Assembly (NCBI RefSeq): GCF_000008305.1
Contig: NC_006055.1
Coordinates: 60,001 to 92,000, forward strand
Direction of reading: 5' to 3'
Length of the DNA: 32,000 nucleotides
Source of the DNA: Mesoplasma florum L1
GTDB lineage: Bacteria; Bacillota_I; Bacilli_A; Mycoplasmatales; Mycoplasmataceae
The stretch's first letter is position 1, and each line of letters begins with the position of its first letter. The notes beneath the pieces are model-generated. The model saw only the letters and a program-made list of their open reading frames with translations. It was not told where the DNA came from and did not search any database. The position numbers and the translations under genes are program-made. Of this stretch, positions 1,953 through 25,105 are shown piece after piece.

Positions 1953-2552
1953 TTAAAATTTCTTAGCAGCAGCAATCAAATCAGAAGTTATTGATGAAAC
2001 AATTTCTTTTGGAGATTGAGTACTTAGTGGTTCAACCTTAACACCAGCTAATAAAATAGGTTCAGCAACTTTTGCCCCCATAAATTCTCATGTACCTTTT
2101 AAATATGCTACATGATCTCCTCATGGGTATCAACCTTTTGGAGCTCCTTGAGTAGCAAGTATTTGAACTTTAAGTTTATCTAATAAACCAATGCTTGCAC
2201 CCTTTGTTGCGTATTTATAAGAAAAAGTTTGGTTAGCTAAAGCAACATGGTCAATATAGTTTTTTAACATTCCAGAAACATGGAAGTTATACATTGGAGC
2301 GATAACTAATAATTTATCAACATCTTTTAATTGATTAATATATTTCATTCCTTCTTCTTCACCTCAATAAGTTGAAAAAGTTTCAGTTGTTAAAACATTT
2401 GTTCCGACAACAAGTTTATTTAAATCTAATTCAATAATCTCGTCATTTGGATTAACTTTTTTGTATTCCTCTAAAAATATTCTTGCCATTTCGTGTGAAT
2501 TTGATTTATCACTTGGAATAACAGAACCATTTATAACTAATAATTTACTCAT
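1953..2552 (-). CDS. azoR: FMN-dependent NADH-azoreductase / quinone reductase family protein (199 aa)
   Basis: Track ORFs 2364..2552 and 2130..2348 are in one frame. Reading five in-frame TGA codons (2362-2364, 2130-2132, 2121-2123, 2088-2090 and one more between the two fragments) as Trp extends the ORF to TAA at 1953-1955. SD aaggaga lies upstream of the ATG at 2552. Flavodoxin-like AzoR/AcpD pattern MSKLLVINGS..., APMYNF, LKNYIDH. Confidence 0.85.
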
Positions 2553-2638
2553 AAAAATATTCTCCTTTTTATTATTTTAATTATATCACTAAAAGTTTAT
2601 AATCAATATTAACAAAACAACTGAAAAGGAATATAAAA

Positions 2639-3439
2639 ATGTTAAAAGAAAATAAGATTTTTGATGCACACATACATTTTAATGATGATTATAAATATAC
2701 AAATGAAATGATAGAACCTATGATTAATGAAGCTATTAAAAATGATGTTGAAGGTTTTTTATGCGCAAGCTTTGATATTAATTCAAGTAAAAAAGCTGTT
2801 GAACTTTCTAAAAAATATAAAGGAATTGTTTTTGCAGGTATTGCTATTCATCCAAACGATGTTTCAAAAAATAATTTTTCAGTTATGGAAGAATTAGATG
2901 AATTAGCAAAAGAAGCAGAGGTTATAGCAATTGGTGAAACAGGTCTTGATTATTTTTATACTAAGGAAGACGCAGAGTTGCAAAAAACATTTTTTAAAAA
3001 ACATATTGAGTTAGCAAAAAAACATAATAAAGCATTGCAAATACATATAAGAGATCACGTTAATGTTTTTGAAGCATATGATGATGTTGTTGAAATTTTA
3101 AAAGAATATAATTTAGAAAAAGTTATAGTACATTGCTTTTCGGCTAATTCTATATACGCACAAAAATTTTTGGATTTAGGTTGTTACATAAATATAGGGG
3201 GTGCAGTAACTTTTAAAAATGCAAAAGTGCTTCAAGAAGCCGTTGAAATTATACCTTTAGAAAAAATGCTAGTTGAAACAGACGCACCTTATTTAACACC
3301 ACATCCACATAGAGGACAATTAAACGAAGCAAAATTTATTAATTTAACTGTTGAGAAAATTGCAGAAATAAAAAATGTAACTAAAGAAGAAGTAATAAAA
3401 TTAACAACAAGCAACGCTAAATTAATTTTTAATATTTAA
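2639..3439 (+). CDS. tatD: TatD-family metal-dependent hydrolase/DNase (copy 1)
   Basis: Intact 266-aa ORF with TatD signatures DAHIHF, GETGLDY, VHCFS and ETDAPYLTP. Confidence 0.9.
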   Translation: MLKENKIFDAHIHFNDDYKYTNEMIEPMINEAIKNDVEGFLCASFDINSSKKAVELSKKYKGIVFAGIAIHPNDVSKNNFSVMEELDELAKEAEVIAIGETGLDYFYTKEDAELQKTFFKKHIELAKKHNKALQIHIRDHVNVFEAYDDVVEILKEYNLEKVIVHCFSANSIYAQKFLDLGCYINIGGAVTFKNAKVLQEAVEIIPLEKMLVETDAPYLTPHPHRGQLNEAKFINLTVEKIAEIKNVTKEEVIKLTTSNAKLIFNI

Positions 3440-3481
3440 AAGTTTTATAATTAAAGAGTAAGAGAAAAAGAGGATTACATA

Positions 3482-4273
3482 ATGGCAGGAGTATATGATA
3501 CACATTGTCACTTAAATGACAATATTTATATTGAAAATGAAATCTCAAGCAGCGAAATGGCGGCTGAGGCTAAAAAAAGCGGAGTAGACATAATTAATAA
3601 TGTTGGGTATGATATAAAATCATCAAAAGTTGCTTTAGTTCAAGCACAAAAAAATAAACATGTTTGAGCATTAGTTGGAATACATCCAACACACGCACAA
3701 TTTTTTACAGATGAAGCATATAATACTTTAGAGATTTTAGCTAACGCAGATAAAGTGGTTGGAATTGGTGAGACCGGTTTAGATTATTCAAGAGGCATTG
3801 AATATAAAAACCAACAAATTAGTGGATTTACAAAACAAGTTAAACTTGCTAAGAAAATGGATTTACCATTAATGTTACACGTAAGGGATATTGAAGGATC
3901 AATTGATGCTTATCACGATGTTTTAGCTATATTAAAAAAAGAGAAATATCATAAAGCAGTTTTACATGCTTTTAATGAAAGTTTAGAGATTGCAGAAATG
4001 TTTATTGAAAAAGGTATTCTAATATCAATAAATGGTCAAGTTACAAGAGATAAAAATTTAAAAAAAGTTGTTAAAGAATTACCAATGAATAGTATAGTTG
4101 TTGAATCAGATGCACCTTACGATACACCTAAACCATACAATAAAAAAACTAATGCTCCAAAATATTTACCTTTAGTTGTTGAAGCAATAGCTAATATTAA
4201 AAAAATGAGCAGATCTGATGTAGCAGAAATAACAAGGGATAATGCAGTTAGATTATTTTTCCCAAAAAGATAA
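3482..4273 (+). CDS. TatD-family metal-dependent hydrolase/DNase (copy 2)
   Basis: Track ORFs 3482..3667 and 3755..4273 share a frame. TGA at 3665-3667 is read as Trp (KHV-W-ALVGIHP). Motifs DTHCHL, GETGLDY, LHAFN and ESDAPY. It has its own SD agagga and a tataat box in the 42-bp spacer after copy 1. Confidence 0.9.
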
Positions 4274-4300
4274 AAAACTTAGCAAACGCTAAGTTTTTTA
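4272..4300. terminator. bidirectional terminator between tatD copy 2 and the convergent Cys-rich micro-ORF
   Basis: Stem cttagc (4278-4283), loop aaac, gctaag (4288-4293). It is flanked by A6 on the left and T6 on the right. Confidence 0.75.
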
Positions 4301-4411
4301 TTAGTCACAAGCACACTCACTCATTGTGCAATTGCAATCTTTACAAGTACAGCTTTCTTTAGTGCAATCAGCACAGCTGCATGTTTTACAAGTACATTTA
4401 TTATCTGCCAT
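4301..4411 (-). CDS. 36-aa cysteine-rich, metallothionein-like peptide (MADNKCTCKTCSCADCTKESCTCKDCNCTMSECACD); absent from the ORF track because it is under 60 aa
   Basis: ATG at 4411-4409, with GGAGGT SD at 4423-4418 (6-nt spacer) and TAA at 4303-4301. 11 of 36 residues are Cys, with no aromatic residues and no His. The CTCKxCxC module occurs twice, backed by an exact in-frame 12-nt repeat at 4340-4351 and 4385-4396. A terminator lies immediately downstream. Confidence 0.6.
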   Translation of the reverse strand: MADNKCTCKTCSCADCTKESCTCKDCNCTMSECACD

Positions 4412-4423
4412 ATACAAACCTCC

Positions 4424-4438
4424 AAGGAATTATTCCTT
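4424..4438. promoter_or_regulatory. perfect 7-1-7 palindrome AAGGAAT-T-ATTCCTT abutting the SD of the Cys-rich micro-ORF (candidate operator or 5'-UTR hairpin)
   Basis: Read directly: aaggaat (4424-4430), t (4431), attcctt (4432-4438). It ends one base from the SD at 4418-4423. Confidence 0.4.
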
Positions 4439-4464
4439 AATTTAATAGTATCACTTTAATATAA

Positions 4465-4492
4465 ATATGTATATAAAATATGTATATAAAAT
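4465..4492. repeat. tandem direct repeat, 2 x 13 bp (ATATGTATATAAA), in the divergent promoter region
   Basis: atatgtatataaa at 4465-4477 and again at 4478-4490. It lies just upstream of the -10-like tgatatataat (4498-4508) of the 4526 gene. Confidence 0.45.
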
Positions 4493-4525
4493 TATTTTGA
4501 TATATAATAATTAAAAGAGGTTAAA

Positions 4526-4846
4526 ATGAAAAACGAAGAATTTGAAGTTATTAATAAACTAGGTGGAAAACAAGTTAACATTTATTTAAATGATGAGACT
4601 TTAATATTAGAAAAACTTTTTGAACAAAAATATAATCAAAAACCAAATAGATCAAAAATATATAAAGATTTTTTAAAAAAACAATTAGGTGATGATTTGT
4701 TAAGTGAAATAAATGATTTTGATAAAAACATTTGCAGTTGTTGTGAAGGTGATTTTTCATTTACAAAAAAACAAATGTATTTATGTAATAATAAAGAAAA
4801 TAAAACAGCGTGCATAATTTGCGAAGACTGTATAATAAAAAAATAA
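4526..4846 (+). CDS. hypothetical 106-aa protein: putative ribbon-helix-helix DNA-binding N-terminus plus a 7-Cys C-terminal domain
   Basis: Intact ORF with SD aagagg at 4514-4519. Residues 15-54 (KQVNIYLNDETLILEKLFEQKY..NRSKIYKDFLKKQL) have a strand-helix-helix pattern. The C-terminus is CSCC..x13..C..x8..CIICEDC. It is divergent from the Cys-rich micro-ORF. The function is an inference. Confidence 0.7.
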   Translation: MKNEEFEVINKLGGKQVNIYLNDETLILEKLFEQKYNQKPNRSKIYKDFLKKQLGDDLLSEINDFDKNICSCCEGDFSFTKKQMYLCNNKENKTACIICEDCIIKK

Positions 4847-4864
4847 AAGCTTTAAGGAGCTTTT
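4845..4864. terminator. weak bidirectional hairpin between the 4526 gene and convergent msrA
   Basis: aaaagct (4845-4851), loop ttaagg, agctttt (4858-4864), followed by a T-run. The stem is AT-rich and overlaps both stop codons. Confidence 0.45.
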
Positions 4865-5354
4865 ATTTTTTATAATCTGATAAATCAATGTGACAATAAC
4901 CATTAGGATTTTTGTCCAAATATTTTTGGTGATATTCCTCAGCATCAAAGAAATTTTTTAATATTTCATTTTCAACAACAACTTTTTGAGTTGTTTGTTT
5001 TTGAAAGTTTTCCAAATATTTTTTTACAAAAGTAAAATCAAATTCATTTATTGAATATATACCAGTTCTATATTGTGTACCCCTATCATTCCCCTGTTGG
5101 TTTAGTAAAAATGGATTTATTATTGAAAAATATAAATCTAATATTTCTTTAAGAGATATTTCTTTTTCATTAAATTCAATTTTTAAAGTTTCTGTATGAT
5201 TTGTTTTTCCAGTACAAACTTCTTCATAAGTAGGGTTATCTATATCGCCTTGTGCATAACCAACAGTTGTTTTAATTATTCCTTTTTGATAATCAAAAAA
5301 AGCTTGAACTCCTCAGAAACAACCCCCAGCTAAATATATAGTTTTATTTTCCAT
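4863..5354 (-). CDS. msrA: peptide-methionine (S)-S-oxide reductase
   Basis: Not in the ORF track because it is split by TGA. The translation is [20 protein letters not shown]...GNDRGTQYRTGIY...EEYHQKYL...; the catalytic GCFWG Trp is a TGA codon (5313-5315). 163 aa, TAA stop at 4863-4865. Confidence 0.95.
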
Positions 5355-5649
5355 AATTTTTGACTCCTCAATCACTCATTTGATCTAGTATTGGTTTTAA
5401 GCTTTTACCTAAATCTGTTAAACTGTATTCAACCTTTGGTGGAACAACAGGGTAAACTGTTCTTTCTACAAGTTTATTTTCTTCTAAAAACCTCAAGTTT
5501 GATGTTAATACCTTTTGACTAATGCCTGCTATTCTTTTTTCCAATTCATTAAAGCGACAAGTTCCAAATGAAAGTTCTCGTATGATTAATATAACTCACT
5601 TTGATTTAATAAAATTTAATGTGTATTCTAATGGGCAAAATTTTTCCAT
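5344..5649 (-). CDS. HxlR/DUF24-family winged-helix transcriptional regulator (101 aa) with N-terminal Cys5
   Basis: Not in the ORF track (in-frame TGAs). The translation [81 protein letters not shown] matches the HxlR pattern CP..tl..i..KW...I...L....RF.EL...I..IS...L...L..LE...LV.R......P..VEY.LT..G. SD aaggaaa. Its stop overlaps the msrA start by 11 nt. Confidence 0.85.
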
Positions 5650-5670
5650 AATTTTCCTTACTTTCCTTTT

Positions 5671-5703
5671 TGTAAGTATATAACATTTTTGTTGGTACTT
5701 ACA
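5671..5703. promoter_or_regulatory. 8-bp inverted repeat TGTAAGTA-N17-TACTTACA in the hxlR / azoR divergent promoter region (candidate operator)
   Basis: tgtaagta (5671-5678) is the exact reverse complement of tacttaca (5696-5703). The repeat lies between the hxlR start (5649) and the azoR copy 2 -10 box. Confidence 0.4.
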
Positions 5704-5716
5704 TTATTTATTGTTT

Positions 5717-5722
5717 TATAAT
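5717..5722 (+). promoter_or_regulatory. consensus -10 box TATAAT for azoR copy 2
   Basis: tataat at 5717-5722, about 45 nt upstream of the ATG at 5768. SD agagga at 5753-5758. Confidence 0.4.
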
Positions 5723-5767
5723 ATTATATACTTGTATAGATAAAATACAAAGTAGAGGATAAACAAA

Positions 5768-6367
5768 ATGAAAAAAGTATTAGTAATTAATTCAAGTGTT
5801 TCTCAATTAAACAATTCAGATTCATTAGCAATGTCAAACATGTTTATTGAAGAATATAAAAAAATGAATCCAAATGATGAAATCATTAATCTAGATTTAA
5901 ATGAGACTAAAATGTCACAAAAAACATTAACAAGAAATAATATCGCTGAATATTTCAATCAAGAAGATTCATTTGATTTTATAGAACAATTAAAATCAGT
6001 TGACAAAATAGTTTTAAATTTTTCAATGGTTAACTGAGGTATACCAGCTATATTAAAAAACTATATAGATCATATAACAATTGCAAACCTTACTTTTACA
6101 TATAAGGGCTCAACAGATGGTAATGCAATAGGGTTACTTTCAAATATACAGGATGTTCAAATTTTAGCAACAAAAGGTGGAACTGGAACTCCAAACTCAG
6201 CATTTACAGAATATGTAAAAAACATTTGAGAATTTTTAGGTGCTAAGGTAAAAAGCGAAATCATCATTAACGAAATGATGGATATACCACCTTATGCAGA
6301 ACAATCTCCAATTGAGAATTTAGAAAAAGTAAAAGAACAAATTTTAAAAGCTGCTAAAAACTTTTAA
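5768..6367 (+). CDS. azoR: FMN-dependent NADH-azoreductase / quinone reductase family protein, second paralog (199 aa)
   Basis: Track ORF 5768..6037 continues through TGA at 6035-6037 and 6227-6229 to TAA at 6365-6367. It has the same length and the same conserved blocks as the 1953..2552 copy (EEYKK.NPNDEII.LDL, LKNYIDH, VQILATxG, WEFxGAKV). Confidence 0.85.
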
Positions 6368-23682: not shown

Positions 23683-23710
23683 AGATATTTAAATGTAGAA
23701 AGGTGATCAT

Positions 23711-25105
23711 ATGAATATAAAAGATTTTAAGATAAATAAAATTTCGTTTGATTTTAAACGTGACAAATTAAAGTGAATTTCAATAGGATTATGAGCATCA
23801 CTTTTTATTGTTGTAATAGTTCTTTTTTCAGTTTTTTGAGCAACAAAAAACGTTAATTGAACGCAAGGTGACAGTTTTTCTGAACCTGTGCATTGAGGAG
23901 GAGTAGAAGCAACATATGGTGGTATAGGAATATACCCAATGGCTATGACTCTTGGTATGATTGTTGCTATATTATTCACATTGTATAAATTTTGAAAAAA
24001 AGGTTTAAATGTGACTGAGCTTTCAATTGGTATTGCAATTTGTATACCCATTTCACTTATGGGTGCTAGTTTTTTTGGTAAATTAAATGCTGATTCACCC
24101 GGAGTTAATGCTAATGGAGTTGGCTTTTGAGGTTTATTTGCTTTCTGAAATGCTGGTATGGCAATTCATGGTGGAGTTTATGGAGGATTACTTGCAGGAT
24201 TAATACTTTTCTATTTTGTTGGAAGAAAATCAAAAACTTCTATGTTAGTTTATGCAGATGCAATAGTACCAAATATTCTTTTAGGTCAAGCAATTGGAAG
24301 ATGAGGTAACTTTTTTAACCATGAAGTTATGGGCGCTCCTGTAGGAGTTGTAGCTAAATCAGGAACATGGGGAACTTTGTCTAATGTTAAGTGGGAAGAA
24401 GTCGGAAGTCATTATAAATTTTTACCAGATTGAATATCAAGAAATTTAATGGTTCAAGCTAAAACCGATGGAACCCTTTCAAATGGAGTTTCATTTAATC
24501 AAGGTGATTTAGTTCAATTATCTCCAATATTCCTTTATGAATCTTTAAGTTTATTAGCAGCTTGAGTAATAATTACTTTTATTATTCCTAATATAACTAA
24601 ATGAATAAGTAAAAAACCTTGAAAAGTTGAAACAGGTAAATATAATTACAGCTTGTCATTTTCAATTAAACAATGATTTATGCCTTGACAAAAATCAAGT
24701 GATCAAATTCAATCAGCTAGAGATATTTGAAACTTAGCTTATTTTAGAAATATTGATGAAGAAGCTAAACAAGAATATTTAAAAAGTTTAGAGTTGAATA
24801 GAACTAAATATTTAAAGCCTAAAGAAATAAATAAGGCAAATAAATTGAATGAATATGTTTCAACAAAAGCCGGAGTAGAATGTTTTGCATATTTCTTTGC
24901 ATGAAATTTTGTAAGATTTTTCCTAGAATTAAGTAGACCCGATGATCATTTATTTGTGATGTATGACAAACCATTATCATTATCACTGATATTAATATCT
25001 GCAATGATAGGTTTAATCGGAATGATTGCATCTCAATATTGAATACCAATATTATTCAGAAAAAATGGATACTTATACGAAAAAGAATATTTTTCAATAA
25101 ATTAA
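23711..25105 (+). CDS. lgt: prolipoprotein diacylglyceryl transferase, second paralog (464 aa)
   Basis: Invisible in the ORF track because about 20 in-frame TGAs break it up. I verified codon by codon that it is open from the ATG at 23711 (SD aaaggtga) to TAA at 25103-25105. Motifs AIHGGVYGG, IGRWGNFFNHEVMG (TGA at 24302-24304), SPIFLYES, and FAWNFVRFFLELSRPDD. Confidence 0.85.

Follow-up and report, generated by a model that had tools for sequence, protein, structure and literature searches.

Mfl049 and a divergent, unannotated Cys-rich peptide gene of Mesoplasma florum: a conserved two-gene cassette with a candidate regulator and a tandem intergenic repeat

Small regulators encoded back to back with a small Cys-rich peptide are known from cyanobacteria, where in SmtB/SmtA of Synechococcus and AzuR/NmtA of Anabaena an ArsR repressor is transcribed divergently from a metallothionein (MT) gene and the two genes share intergenic repeats. 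The same layout is found in a 32,000-nucleotide stretch of the Mesoplasma florum L1 genome (genome positions 60001-92000, here called the window; a window coordinate is the genome coordinate minus 60000). The gene mfl049, which encodes a protein of 106 amino acids (aa), faces away from an unannotated gene for a 36-residue Cys-rich peptide, and a tandem 13-bp repeat lies between the two. The reading preferred here, with a probability of about one half, is that the pair forms a self-contained cassette in which Mfl049 would bind DNA at the tandem cores and respond to metal or thiol state. The window has a G+C content of 27.6% and its reading frames are interrupted by TGA (genetic code 4).

The cyanobacterial pairs also share with this locus a weak regulator promoter, which is presumably autoregulated. 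However, SmtB is a winged-helix ArsR protein, while Mfl049 matches no winged helix-turn-helix (wHTH) family, and SmtA is a metallothionein of the Cys/His zinc-finger-like kind, while the M. florum peptide lacks His and any homology to SmtA. The operators of the SmtB type are inverted repeats, as opposed to the direct repeats of the M. florum array. Finally, smtA is repressed until metal is added, whereas the M. florum peptide gene is among the most transcribed genes in unstressed cells.

Among low-GC Gram-positive bacteria, the best precedent for a DNA-binding domain joined to a Cys tail as a metal switch would, by analogy, be CopY of Enterococcus hirae and streptococci, likewise a small repressor with a DNA-binding N-terminal domain and a C-terminal Cys cluster. 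The cluster of CopY holds Zn(II) when the protein is bound to DNA, and the zinc is exchanged for Cu(I). Its N-terminal domain is a BlaI/MecI winged helix and its motif is CxCx4CxC, while Mfl049 has CxCC...CxxC and shows no wHTH signal; moreover, CopY controls ATPase operons and not an MT-like peptide.

NikR is, to our knowledge, the only well-studied ribbon-helix-helix (RHH) protein fused to a C-terminal metal-sensing domain. That domain is an ACT-like tetramerisation domain of ~80 aa with a His/Cys nickel site, unlike the 40-aa Cys knuckle of Mfl049; the NikR operator is an inverted repeat, 16 bp apart, and the N-terminal domain of Mfl049 fails to match an RHH profile that includes NikR. The classical RHH proteins Arc, Mnt, CopG, omega, ParG and MetJ are of similar size and contain an alternating hydrophobic/polar strand followed by two helices, which is also the pattern of Mfl049. 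Omega, ParG and MetJ bind tandem direct repeats cooperatively, and classical RHH repressors autoregulate. They differ from the M. florum system in the inter-helix loop, 3-4 residues long against ~9 in Mfl049, and in the repeat period, 7-11 bp against 13 bp at mfl049.

In Ace1 (Cup2)/CUP1 of yeast and MTF-1 of Drosophila, a transcription factor with a Cys-rich metal cluster of its own drives very high metallothionein expression. These are eukaryotic systems, unrelated to Mfl049 in sequence and in DNA-binding fold. As an analogy, activator logic of the Ace1/CUP1 type would be the best fit to a strong peptide promoter and a weak regulator promoter, and it is one of the two readings compatible with the data. 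Mfl049 could be placed in none of the regulator families compared here, and the locus is a regulator-effector divergon made of two unannotated protein families. Its features are as follows.

4526-4846, plus strand: coding sequence of mfl049, 106 aa and stop; open reading frame (ORF) confirmed, published mfl049 coordinates 64525-64846.
4526-4723, plus strand: N-terminal domain of Mfl049, aa 1-66, delimited by conservation and AlphaFold secondary structure.
4724-4843, plus strand: C-terminal Cys module of Mfl049, aa 67-106, delimited by the family alignment and Cys enrichment.
4503-4513, plus strand: mfl049 promoter, with -10 TATAAT at 4503-4508, transcription start site (TSS) at 4513, a 5' untranslated region (5'UTR) of 13 nt and the Shine-Dalgarno (SD) sequence AAGAGG at 4515-4520; Matteau et al. 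2020, Datasets EV1/EV3, coordinates checked against the window.
4465-4490, no strand: tandem 13-bp repeat, with cores ATGTATATA at 4467-4475 and 4480-4488, from the exact sequence.
4445-4453, minus strand: promoter of the peptide gene, extended -10 TGA-TACTAT; the -10 is listed at 64444-64450 in Dataset EV1.
4424-4438, minus strand: palindrome, equal to +1 to +15 of the peptide mRNA, with the TSS at 4438; from the published TSS at 64437-64438 and the fold.
4301-4411, minus strand: unannotated gene of the 36-aa Cys-rich peptide (MADNKCTCKTCSCADCTKESCTCKDCNCTMSECACD), recognised by its coding-type evolution.

An earlier note on this DNA, prepared from the letters alone, had described a putative 106-aa RHH regulator with a Cys-rich sensor-like tail, divergent from a Cys-rich micro-ORF, and two operator-like repeats between them. 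All of its sequence observations are correct. The 106-aa ORF has its Cys residues at positions 70, 72, 73, 87, 96, 99 and 102; the micro-ORF of 36 aa and 11 Cys is divergent from it across a spacer of 114 bp; the 7-1-7 palindrome AAGGAAT-T-ATTCCTT adjoins the SD sequence GGAGG (4419-4423); the 13-bp unit ATATGTATATAAA occurs twice in tandem; and the -10-like TGATATATAAT is located at 4498-4508, in agreement with the published TSS mapping. The interpretation given to these observations is partly supported.

The divergent pair, whose co-occurrence the same note had put forward as a check, is conserved in 9/9 lineages, eight of Mesoplasma and one of a Spiroplasma endosymbiont, each with an mfl049 homolog and an uncalled Cys-rich ORF. 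In the Mesoplasma loci an opposite-strand Cys-rich ORF of 26-37 aa precedes every mfl049 homolog. In the Spiroplasma endosymbiont the homolog is placed between trkA and gatB, an unrelated context, and the divergent Cys peptide and tandem ATGTACATA/ATGTATATA cores are present as well. The cassette is also intact in M. tabanidae, where insertion sequence (IS) ORFs (HTH_21, rve_3; L005 2570-3706 and 3869-4001) lie between TatD and the cassette, and in M. melaleucae (L009 4327-5300), where HxlR is gone and the azoreductase is broken into three fragments. The M. melaleucae locus indicates that the cassette is independent of the HxlR/azoR module, and the pairing kept across changed and unrelated contexts points to a self-contained two-gene cassette. 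The intergenic DNA is conserved to the same degree as the flanking coding sequence (76-87% vs 76-86%). HxlR (mfl051) was considered as a regulator of the peptide gene and is ruled out, since the cassette persists where HxlR was lost (M. melaleucae) or is absent (Spiroplasma).

The repeat consists of ATGTRYATA cores, which are spaced exactly 13 bp apart in 9/9 lineages and are nearly invariant; M. tabanidae has three 13-bp copies, the extra one on the regulator side. Core 1 is fixed at 16 nt from the -10 hexamer of the peptide promoter in every lineage, and its minus strand reads TATACA or TGTACA, a -35-like hexamer at the canonical 17-nt spacing from the peptide -10. The distance of the cores to the regulator -10, on the other hand, floats from 13-17 nt in Mesoplasma to 26 nt in Spiroplasma. 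Counted from the mapped TSSs, the array lies at -27 to -52 on the peptide side and at -23 to -48 on the mfl049 side, and the data support the tandem repeat as a phylogenetic footprint over the -35 zones of both mapped promoters. On its sequence properties it is the best candidate for an operator. The published promoter motif of M. florum is a -10 with its extension, generally without a conserved -35, which makes the tandem repeat a locus-specific element.

Within the window the 22-nt tandem core is unique, with 0.03 occurrences expected by chance. The only other near-match to the 13-mer there is ATATGAATATAAA, with one mismatch (23709-23721, plus strand), a single copy over the start codon of the ORF at 23711, which most likely occurs by chance. 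A metagenome-wide scan for ATGTRYATA-N4-ATGTRYATA returned 120 loci, among them no Mfl049 homolog and no genuine Cys-peptide cassette; these loci are TG/TA microsatellite-like DNA.

The two promoters differ greatly in the number of 5' ends obtained by rapid amplification of cDNA ends (5'-RACE). The minus-strand TSS of the peptide gene at 64437-64438 was found with 736,138 raw reads (105,743 per million), equal to 10.6% of the total 5'-RACE read starts of M. florum L1, and is listed as an 'orphan' facing mfl048 (Matteau et al. 2020, PMC7745072). The TSS of mfl049 has only 43 reads per million, and its transcription unit is monocistronic with about 96 fragments per kilobase per million (FPKM) (Matteau et al. 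2020, PMC7745072), so that mfl049 is weakly expressed despite a good -10. The -10 of the peptide gene is TACTAT, extended to TGA-TACTAT, and in the other lineages it is TGnTAyTAT or TGTATAAT. The gap between the two TSSs is 2,500-fold, in counts that mix synthesis and mRNA stability. Among the intergenic TSSs read (genome 0-498 kb) the peptide TSS is second, behind that of mfl172 (127,943) and ahead of the next at ~18,000; the higher value of mfl172 rules out the peptide TSS as the strongest in the genome. The mfl172 TSS, which belongs to a short-chain dehydrogenase gene, is located at genome position 200968, outside the window, and together with the peptide TSS makes up ~23% of all read starts.

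The peptide contains 11 Cys in 36 residues (31%) and five CxC motifs, and it lacks F, W, Y and H. This composition agrees with the definition of metallothioneins as proteins of low molecular weight with more than 15-30% Cys, arranged in CxC/CxxC motifs, and without aromatic residues. Its variable sites are distributed over the three codon positions as 8/4/23, its Cys codons switch between TGT and TGC with all 11 Cys kept, and its changes in length are in frame; this pattern indicates that the gene is coding and that its Cys are under purifying selection. The possibility that the transcript is a known small RNA (sRNA) was rejected, as no Rfam family scores above its gathering score and the codon pattern is that of a coding sequence. 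The mRNA is monocistronic, ~175 nt long (4262-4438, minus strand) and unannotated.

A collection of 15 billion proteins does not contain the exact peptide, and a search with its 47-aa natural extended frame gave no homolog clusters. Being absent from every protein database searched, the peptide is also invisible to published proteomics. Searches for homology to MT families gave Metallothio_Euk as the best Pfam match, with E=0.44, a score of 11 bits where the cut-off is 22, and a match in only 2/7 orthologs, and the metallothioneins in the PDB matched with E of 3.9 or worse. The peptide may thus be called metallothionein-like in composition only. Two Mesoplasma-like sequencing-run assemblies (L007 3801-3881 and L008 2649-2729) encode a shorter form of 26 aa and 8 Cys, produced by an in-frame deletion of 10 codons, and the peptide of the Spiroplasma endosymbiont (MSKCNCNCACTSCSCK, L010 4827-4877) has 16 aa and 6 Cys, which shows that the number of CxC units is evolutionarily flexible. 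The gene is presumed to be the target or the partner of Mfl049.

Mfl049 is identical to AAT75405.1, annotated as 'unknown protein' of M. florum L1. The full-length sequence has no Pfam or NCBIfam match at E<=10, and the N-terminal domains of eight family members have no recurring Pfam match. Searches of the family against PHROGs and PADLOC gave only non-recurring matches with E of 0.01 or worse and one 17-bit match of the Spiroplasma protein to RT_UG20, all of which are noise. Among 5.8 billion protein clusters there are seven relatives, all from Mesoplasma (M. florum, M. tabanidae, M. entomophilum, M. coleopterae, M. melaleucae, M. chauliocola and one sequencing-run assembly), and a genome scan added a member from M. 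grammopterae. When 1.84 billion representative proteins were searched exhaustively with a HMMER profile, one further, distant member appeared, a 96-aa protein (P0008) of the Spiroplasma endosymbiont of Anurida maritima, which is 44% identical to Mfl049. As judged from these sequences, Mfl049 is the founding member of a small unannotated family that appears to have two domains. Searching the PDB, first with the Mfl049 sequence alone and then with the family profile, brought up designed TIM barrels (summed repeat matches of ~5 bits each) and annexins, which were rejected as spurious.

The protein was detected by mass spectrometry with 4 validated unique peptides, at ~74 molecules per cell, compared with 82 for DnaA (Matteau et al. 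2020, PMC7745072). This supports Mfl049 as a real protein of low abundance, as is usual for transcription factors. The gene is core to 13 strains and received no transposon hits, the authors' own probability of a chance miss being 0.32 (Baby et al. 2018, PMC5893858); in view of that probability the published label 'essential' is not used as evidence here.

The Mesoplasma members, which share 67-98% identity, have in common G13-G14-K15, V17-N-I-Y-L-N-D-E24 and Q38-K-P-N-R-S-K-I-Y-K47, and all 7 Cys are invariant among them. With the Spiroplasma protein included, the motifs VNIYxNxE and NQKPNRS are still invariant, and the polar residues N18 and Y20 fall on the putative strand. The invariance of N18/Y20 and NQKPNRS parallels that of the DNA core.

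The RHH fold proposed for this N-terminus in the earlier note, from the sequence pattern, found no statistical support. The reference was an alignment of 14 classical domains; validated against the PDB, its profile recovers Arc, Mnt, CopG, omega, ParG, AmrZ, RelB, PutA, NikR, FitA, ParD, DinJ and CcdA together with RHH structures outside the seed. The alignment of Mfl049 N-terminal domains was compared with this profile by hhalign in local, permissive and global modes, each with 100 column-shuffled controls. The probability of a match was 0.9% over 10 aligned columns, the global mode gave nothing, and the local score of 11.6, against 8.2 +- 1.6 in the shuffles, was reached by 4/100 of them (z about 2). 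Neither Pfam nor NCBIfam gave a match, and no RHH protein was found by Foldseek with the two low-confidence models. The short hhalign match spans V17-L26 on F10-L19 of Arc, in the register expected for a DNA-reading strand: V17/I19/L21 align with the core positions F10/L12/W14 of Arc, and Q16/N18/Y20 with its base-contacting positions Q9/N11/R13. This agreement of register is suggestive only.

AlphaFold2 on the shallow family alignment gave a pLDDT of 69 for the full length and 60 for the N-terminal domain, and both low-confidence models reproduce helices 23-36 and 46-63/66, with residues 1-22 undefined. The strand of RHH proteins forms only in the dimer, whose paired strands enter the major groove and bind repeated half-sites cooperatively; the tandem repeat would be a suitable target for such binding. 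RHH membership of Mfl049 is not established, the likeness being one of pattern only, and the N-terminal domain is an unproven candidate DNA-binding module. Membership in the ArsR/SmtB, CopY (BlaI/MecI), CsoR and MerR families is not indicated either, as Pfam and NCBIfam gave no match to a winged HTH or to the CsoR four-helix bundle, the CopY motif is lacking, and the promoter spacer is 17 nt here as compared with 19-20 nt typical of MerR targets. No Pfam match to the ACT-like domain NikR_C was found, and the C-terminal domain is only 40 aa of Cys knuckles.

We infer DNA binding and dimerisation of Mfl049, sensing by its Cys module and the direction of regulation along the following lines. Mfl049 would be a small dimeric sequence-specific DNA binder with an N-terminal strand and two helices and a C-terminal Cys5-7 zinc-knuckle module. 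It would bind the ATGTRYATA tandem cores cooperatively, probably as cooperating dimers, with the promoter-proximal core sitting on the -35 of the strong peptide promoter and the distal core overlapping the -35/spacer of the weak mfl049 promoter. One bound array would then set both outputs, mfl049 being self-repressed and the peptide promoter activated or gated, and the metal or thiol state of the Cys module would alter the occupancy of the array. The palindrome would stay outside this switch.

Two readings fit the single growth condition for which data were published. In the first, Mfl049 would be bound, self-repressing and activating the peptide promoter at its -35, by analogy with Ace1/CUP1. 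In the second, Mfl049 would be a repressor with little of it on the DNA, and mRNA stability would account for the gap between the TSSs. The comparison with smtB/smtA made in the earlier note stands as far as the conserved divergent pair is concerned, but its 'repressed until induced' logic fits poorly with a peptide TSS that is among the two strongest in unstressed cells; the plain picture of a silent metallothionein gene awaiting induction fits least well.

Several observations speak against the cassette being a DNA-binding switch. The Pfam, NCBIfam, PDB profile and hhalign-RHH searches showed no significant similarity of Mfl049 to any DNA-binding family, and Foldseek with the low-confidence models returned no RHH and no other significant match. 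The putative strand 15-21 has a pLDDT <50 and is not predicted as a strand, and the inter-helix loop of ~9 residues is longer than in classical RHH proteins. The repeat holds a -35-like hexamer and could be a purely cis-acting promoter element. The published expression and TSS data were obtained in unstressed cells, and the 5'-RACE counts reflect synthesis as well as stability, so the difference between the TSSs is not readable as occupancy.

Of the alternatives, the one that survives best, unlikely as it is, is that Mfl049 does not bind DNA and is a zinc-ribbon accessory of the peptide, for example as a metallochaperone, as a partner in metal loading or redox reactions, or as a stabiliser, with the repeat as a cis promoter element composed of a -35 hexamer and its upstream duplicate. 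Co-inheritance of the two genes is consistent with any functional partnership, no DNA-binding family was detected, and core 1 with its TATACA/TGTACA at canonical spacing can serve as the -35 of a promoter that is extremely active without stress. However, ~74 copies per cell are very few if Mfl049 is to match in stoichiometry a peptide whose gene accounts for 10.6% of 5' ends. A 13-mer that is perfectly duplicated, and triplicated in M. tabanidae, is unlike a plain -35, an element that is generally not conserved in M. florum promoters, and a divergent layout with overlapping promoters is typical of autoregulated regulators.

The C-terminal module is strongly enriched in Cys: this residue makes up 0.68% of 22 neighbouring proteins, and the probability of at least 7 Cys in 37 aa is about 6e-9. 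The residues C70, C72, C73, C99 and C102 (CxCC...CxxC) are invariant in the whole family including Spiroplasma, while C87 and C96 are kept in Mesoplasma only and the Spiroplasma protein has an extra Cys at another position. The low-confidence AlphaFold model contains a beta-hairpin (84-89/95-99) and a helix (100-104). The arrangement is that of a zinc ribbon or knuckle, with C70-x2-C73 and C99-x2-C102 invariant in all members and a predicted beta-hairpin between them, metal content being a prediction; no Pfam zinc-ribbon family matches Mfl049. As far as its residues tell, the module is probably of the zinc knuckle or ribbon type, and it may also act as a sensor. In the best-supported model it would hold at least a structural zinc, and a regulatory metal or thiol site may be made up of C72 in the whole family, joined in Mesoplasma by C87 and C96. 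The 'sensor-like' tail of seven Cys described in the earlier note is correct in that all seven are present, but only five of them are family-invariant, and a structural zinc site is equally plausible.

This leads to the second alternative, also improbable, in which Mfl049 is a DNA-binding autoregulator and its Cys cluster, a Zn(Cys)4 site, has only a structural role in folding or oligomerisation, so that nothing is sensed and the cassette is constitutive. It would explain why the invariant C70/C73 and C99/C102 form a classical CxxC...CxxC with a predicted beta-hairpin and helix and why C87 and C96 are missing from the Spiroplasma homolog, but not why C72, surplus to a four-Cys site, is invariant, nor why the three extra Cys are strictly invariant in Mesoplasma over 67-98% identity. 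The Spiroplasma protein, moreover, has one compensating extra Cys elsewhere. High transcription of the peptide gene without added stress is in line with a constitutive cassette, while a regulator with no input would presumably be unusual in a genome under strong reduction.

The palindrome, which the earlier note had regarded as an operator-like element, is transcribed and forms exactly +1 to +15 of the peptide mRNA. The 5' end of this mRNA folds into a stem of 6 bp with a loop of 3 nt, directly followed by the SD sequence GGAGG. Eight Mesoplasma lineages have the same invariant stem with loops of differing sequence and of 3-5 nt, and in each of them the hairpin begins 6-7 nt downstream of the -10 hexamer. 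An RNA stem-loop can accommodate a variable arm spacing, which a rigid dimeric operator cannot, and the hairpin reading is preferred for this reason. Stem-loops at the 5' terminus guard mRNAs from 5'-end-dependent decay, as in the leaders of ompA in E. coli and of aprE and ermC in B. subtilis (RNase J1). The palindrome is most likely a 5' mRNA hairpin and not an operator, and by analogy with these leaders it probably stabilises the peptide mRNA, adding to the very high transcript level.

It is accordingly very doubtful that the palindrome serves the regulator as an operator for repression of the peptide gene in the manner of smtB/smtA. A perfect inverted repeat over the TSS is in a common position for a repressor site, and its arms are kept in the eight Mesoplasma lineages. 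Against this, it is transcribed from the first base, its invariant arms are 3, 4 or 5 nt apart depending on the species, and the gene behind it is very highly expressed in unstressed cells. The Spiroplasma cassette has the regulator, the peptide and the tandem cores but no palindrome, and taken alone the palindrome is no rarer than expected by chance (12/100 shuffles give at least one match).

Hardly credible is a loosely DksA/TraR-like role in which Mfl049 binds RNA polymerase and not DNA through a helical hairpin with the invariant NQKPNRS as tip loop and a C4 zinc finger. Two consecutive helices with a strictly invariant 7-residue loop between them and then CxxC...CxxC do recall this arrangement, but neither zf-dskA_traR nor another Pfam family matches Mfl049, the acidic residues characteristic of the tip in DksA and Gre factors are missing from its loop, and neither the conserved tandem repeat nor the strict pairing with the peptide gene is explained.

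Returning to the metal- or thiol-responsive cassette, a bolder form of it, with the odds well against it, is that Mfl049 founds an unrecognised family of metal/thiol-sensing transcription factors, with a new or extremely divergent RHH DNA-binding domain and a Cys-cluster sensor, which would activate the MT-like peptide from its -35 while repressing itself. The pair would then be a prokaryotic counterpart of Ace1/CUP1 and a mobile two-gene cassette. If true, a lineage-specific bacterial metallothionein would be added whose regulator is unrelated to the known regulator families, and a new transcription factor family with a one-gene target and a 26-bp candidate operator would make an unusually tractable system. 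A near-minimal genome would also be making one of its most abundant mRNAs from an unannotated gene.

Mollicutes have very few transcription factors, and minimal-genome design as well as whole-cell modelling use M. florum as a model. The published M. florum gene list, transcription units and proteome database omit the peptide gene with its 10.6% of 5'-RACE reads, and the published label of its conserved partner mfl049 is 'hypothetical, putatively essential'. A genome redesign or a model that ignores the cassette misses a major transcript and, probably, a metal/thiol buffering system. For synthetic biology in Mollicutes, the cassette could in addition be the source of a promoter and 5'UTR part that is very strong and possibly tunable.

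The two transcription units of the cassette are closed by terminators.

4270-4301, minus strand: intrinsic terminator of the peptide transcript, bidirectional, which also ends mfl048; found by a terminator scan and listed for peg.48 in Dataset EV2.
4848-4861, no strand: bidirectional terminator closing the mfl049 unit and the convergent msrA; Datasets EV2/EV3 give a stem-loop at 64847-64861 and TU_036 of 364 nt.

The neighbourhood (1953-6367) has a theme of redox and electrophile stress. It contains the azoreductase mfl046, two TatD paralogs, the cassette, msrA (mfl050) and the HxlR-family mfl051, which is divergent from the azoreductase mfl052. In M. florum and M. tabanidae the gene msrA separates the cassette from HxlR; it is absent from this place in M. 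chauliocola, M. entomophilum and M. coleopterae; among M. florum strains it is 'non-core'. No TSS is listed for msrA in the rows read of the published TSS data. The coding sequence of msrA (4863-5354, minus strand) overlaps that of HxlR (5344-5649, minus strand) by 11 nt (5344-5354), which suggests translational coupling or co-transcription of the two genes.

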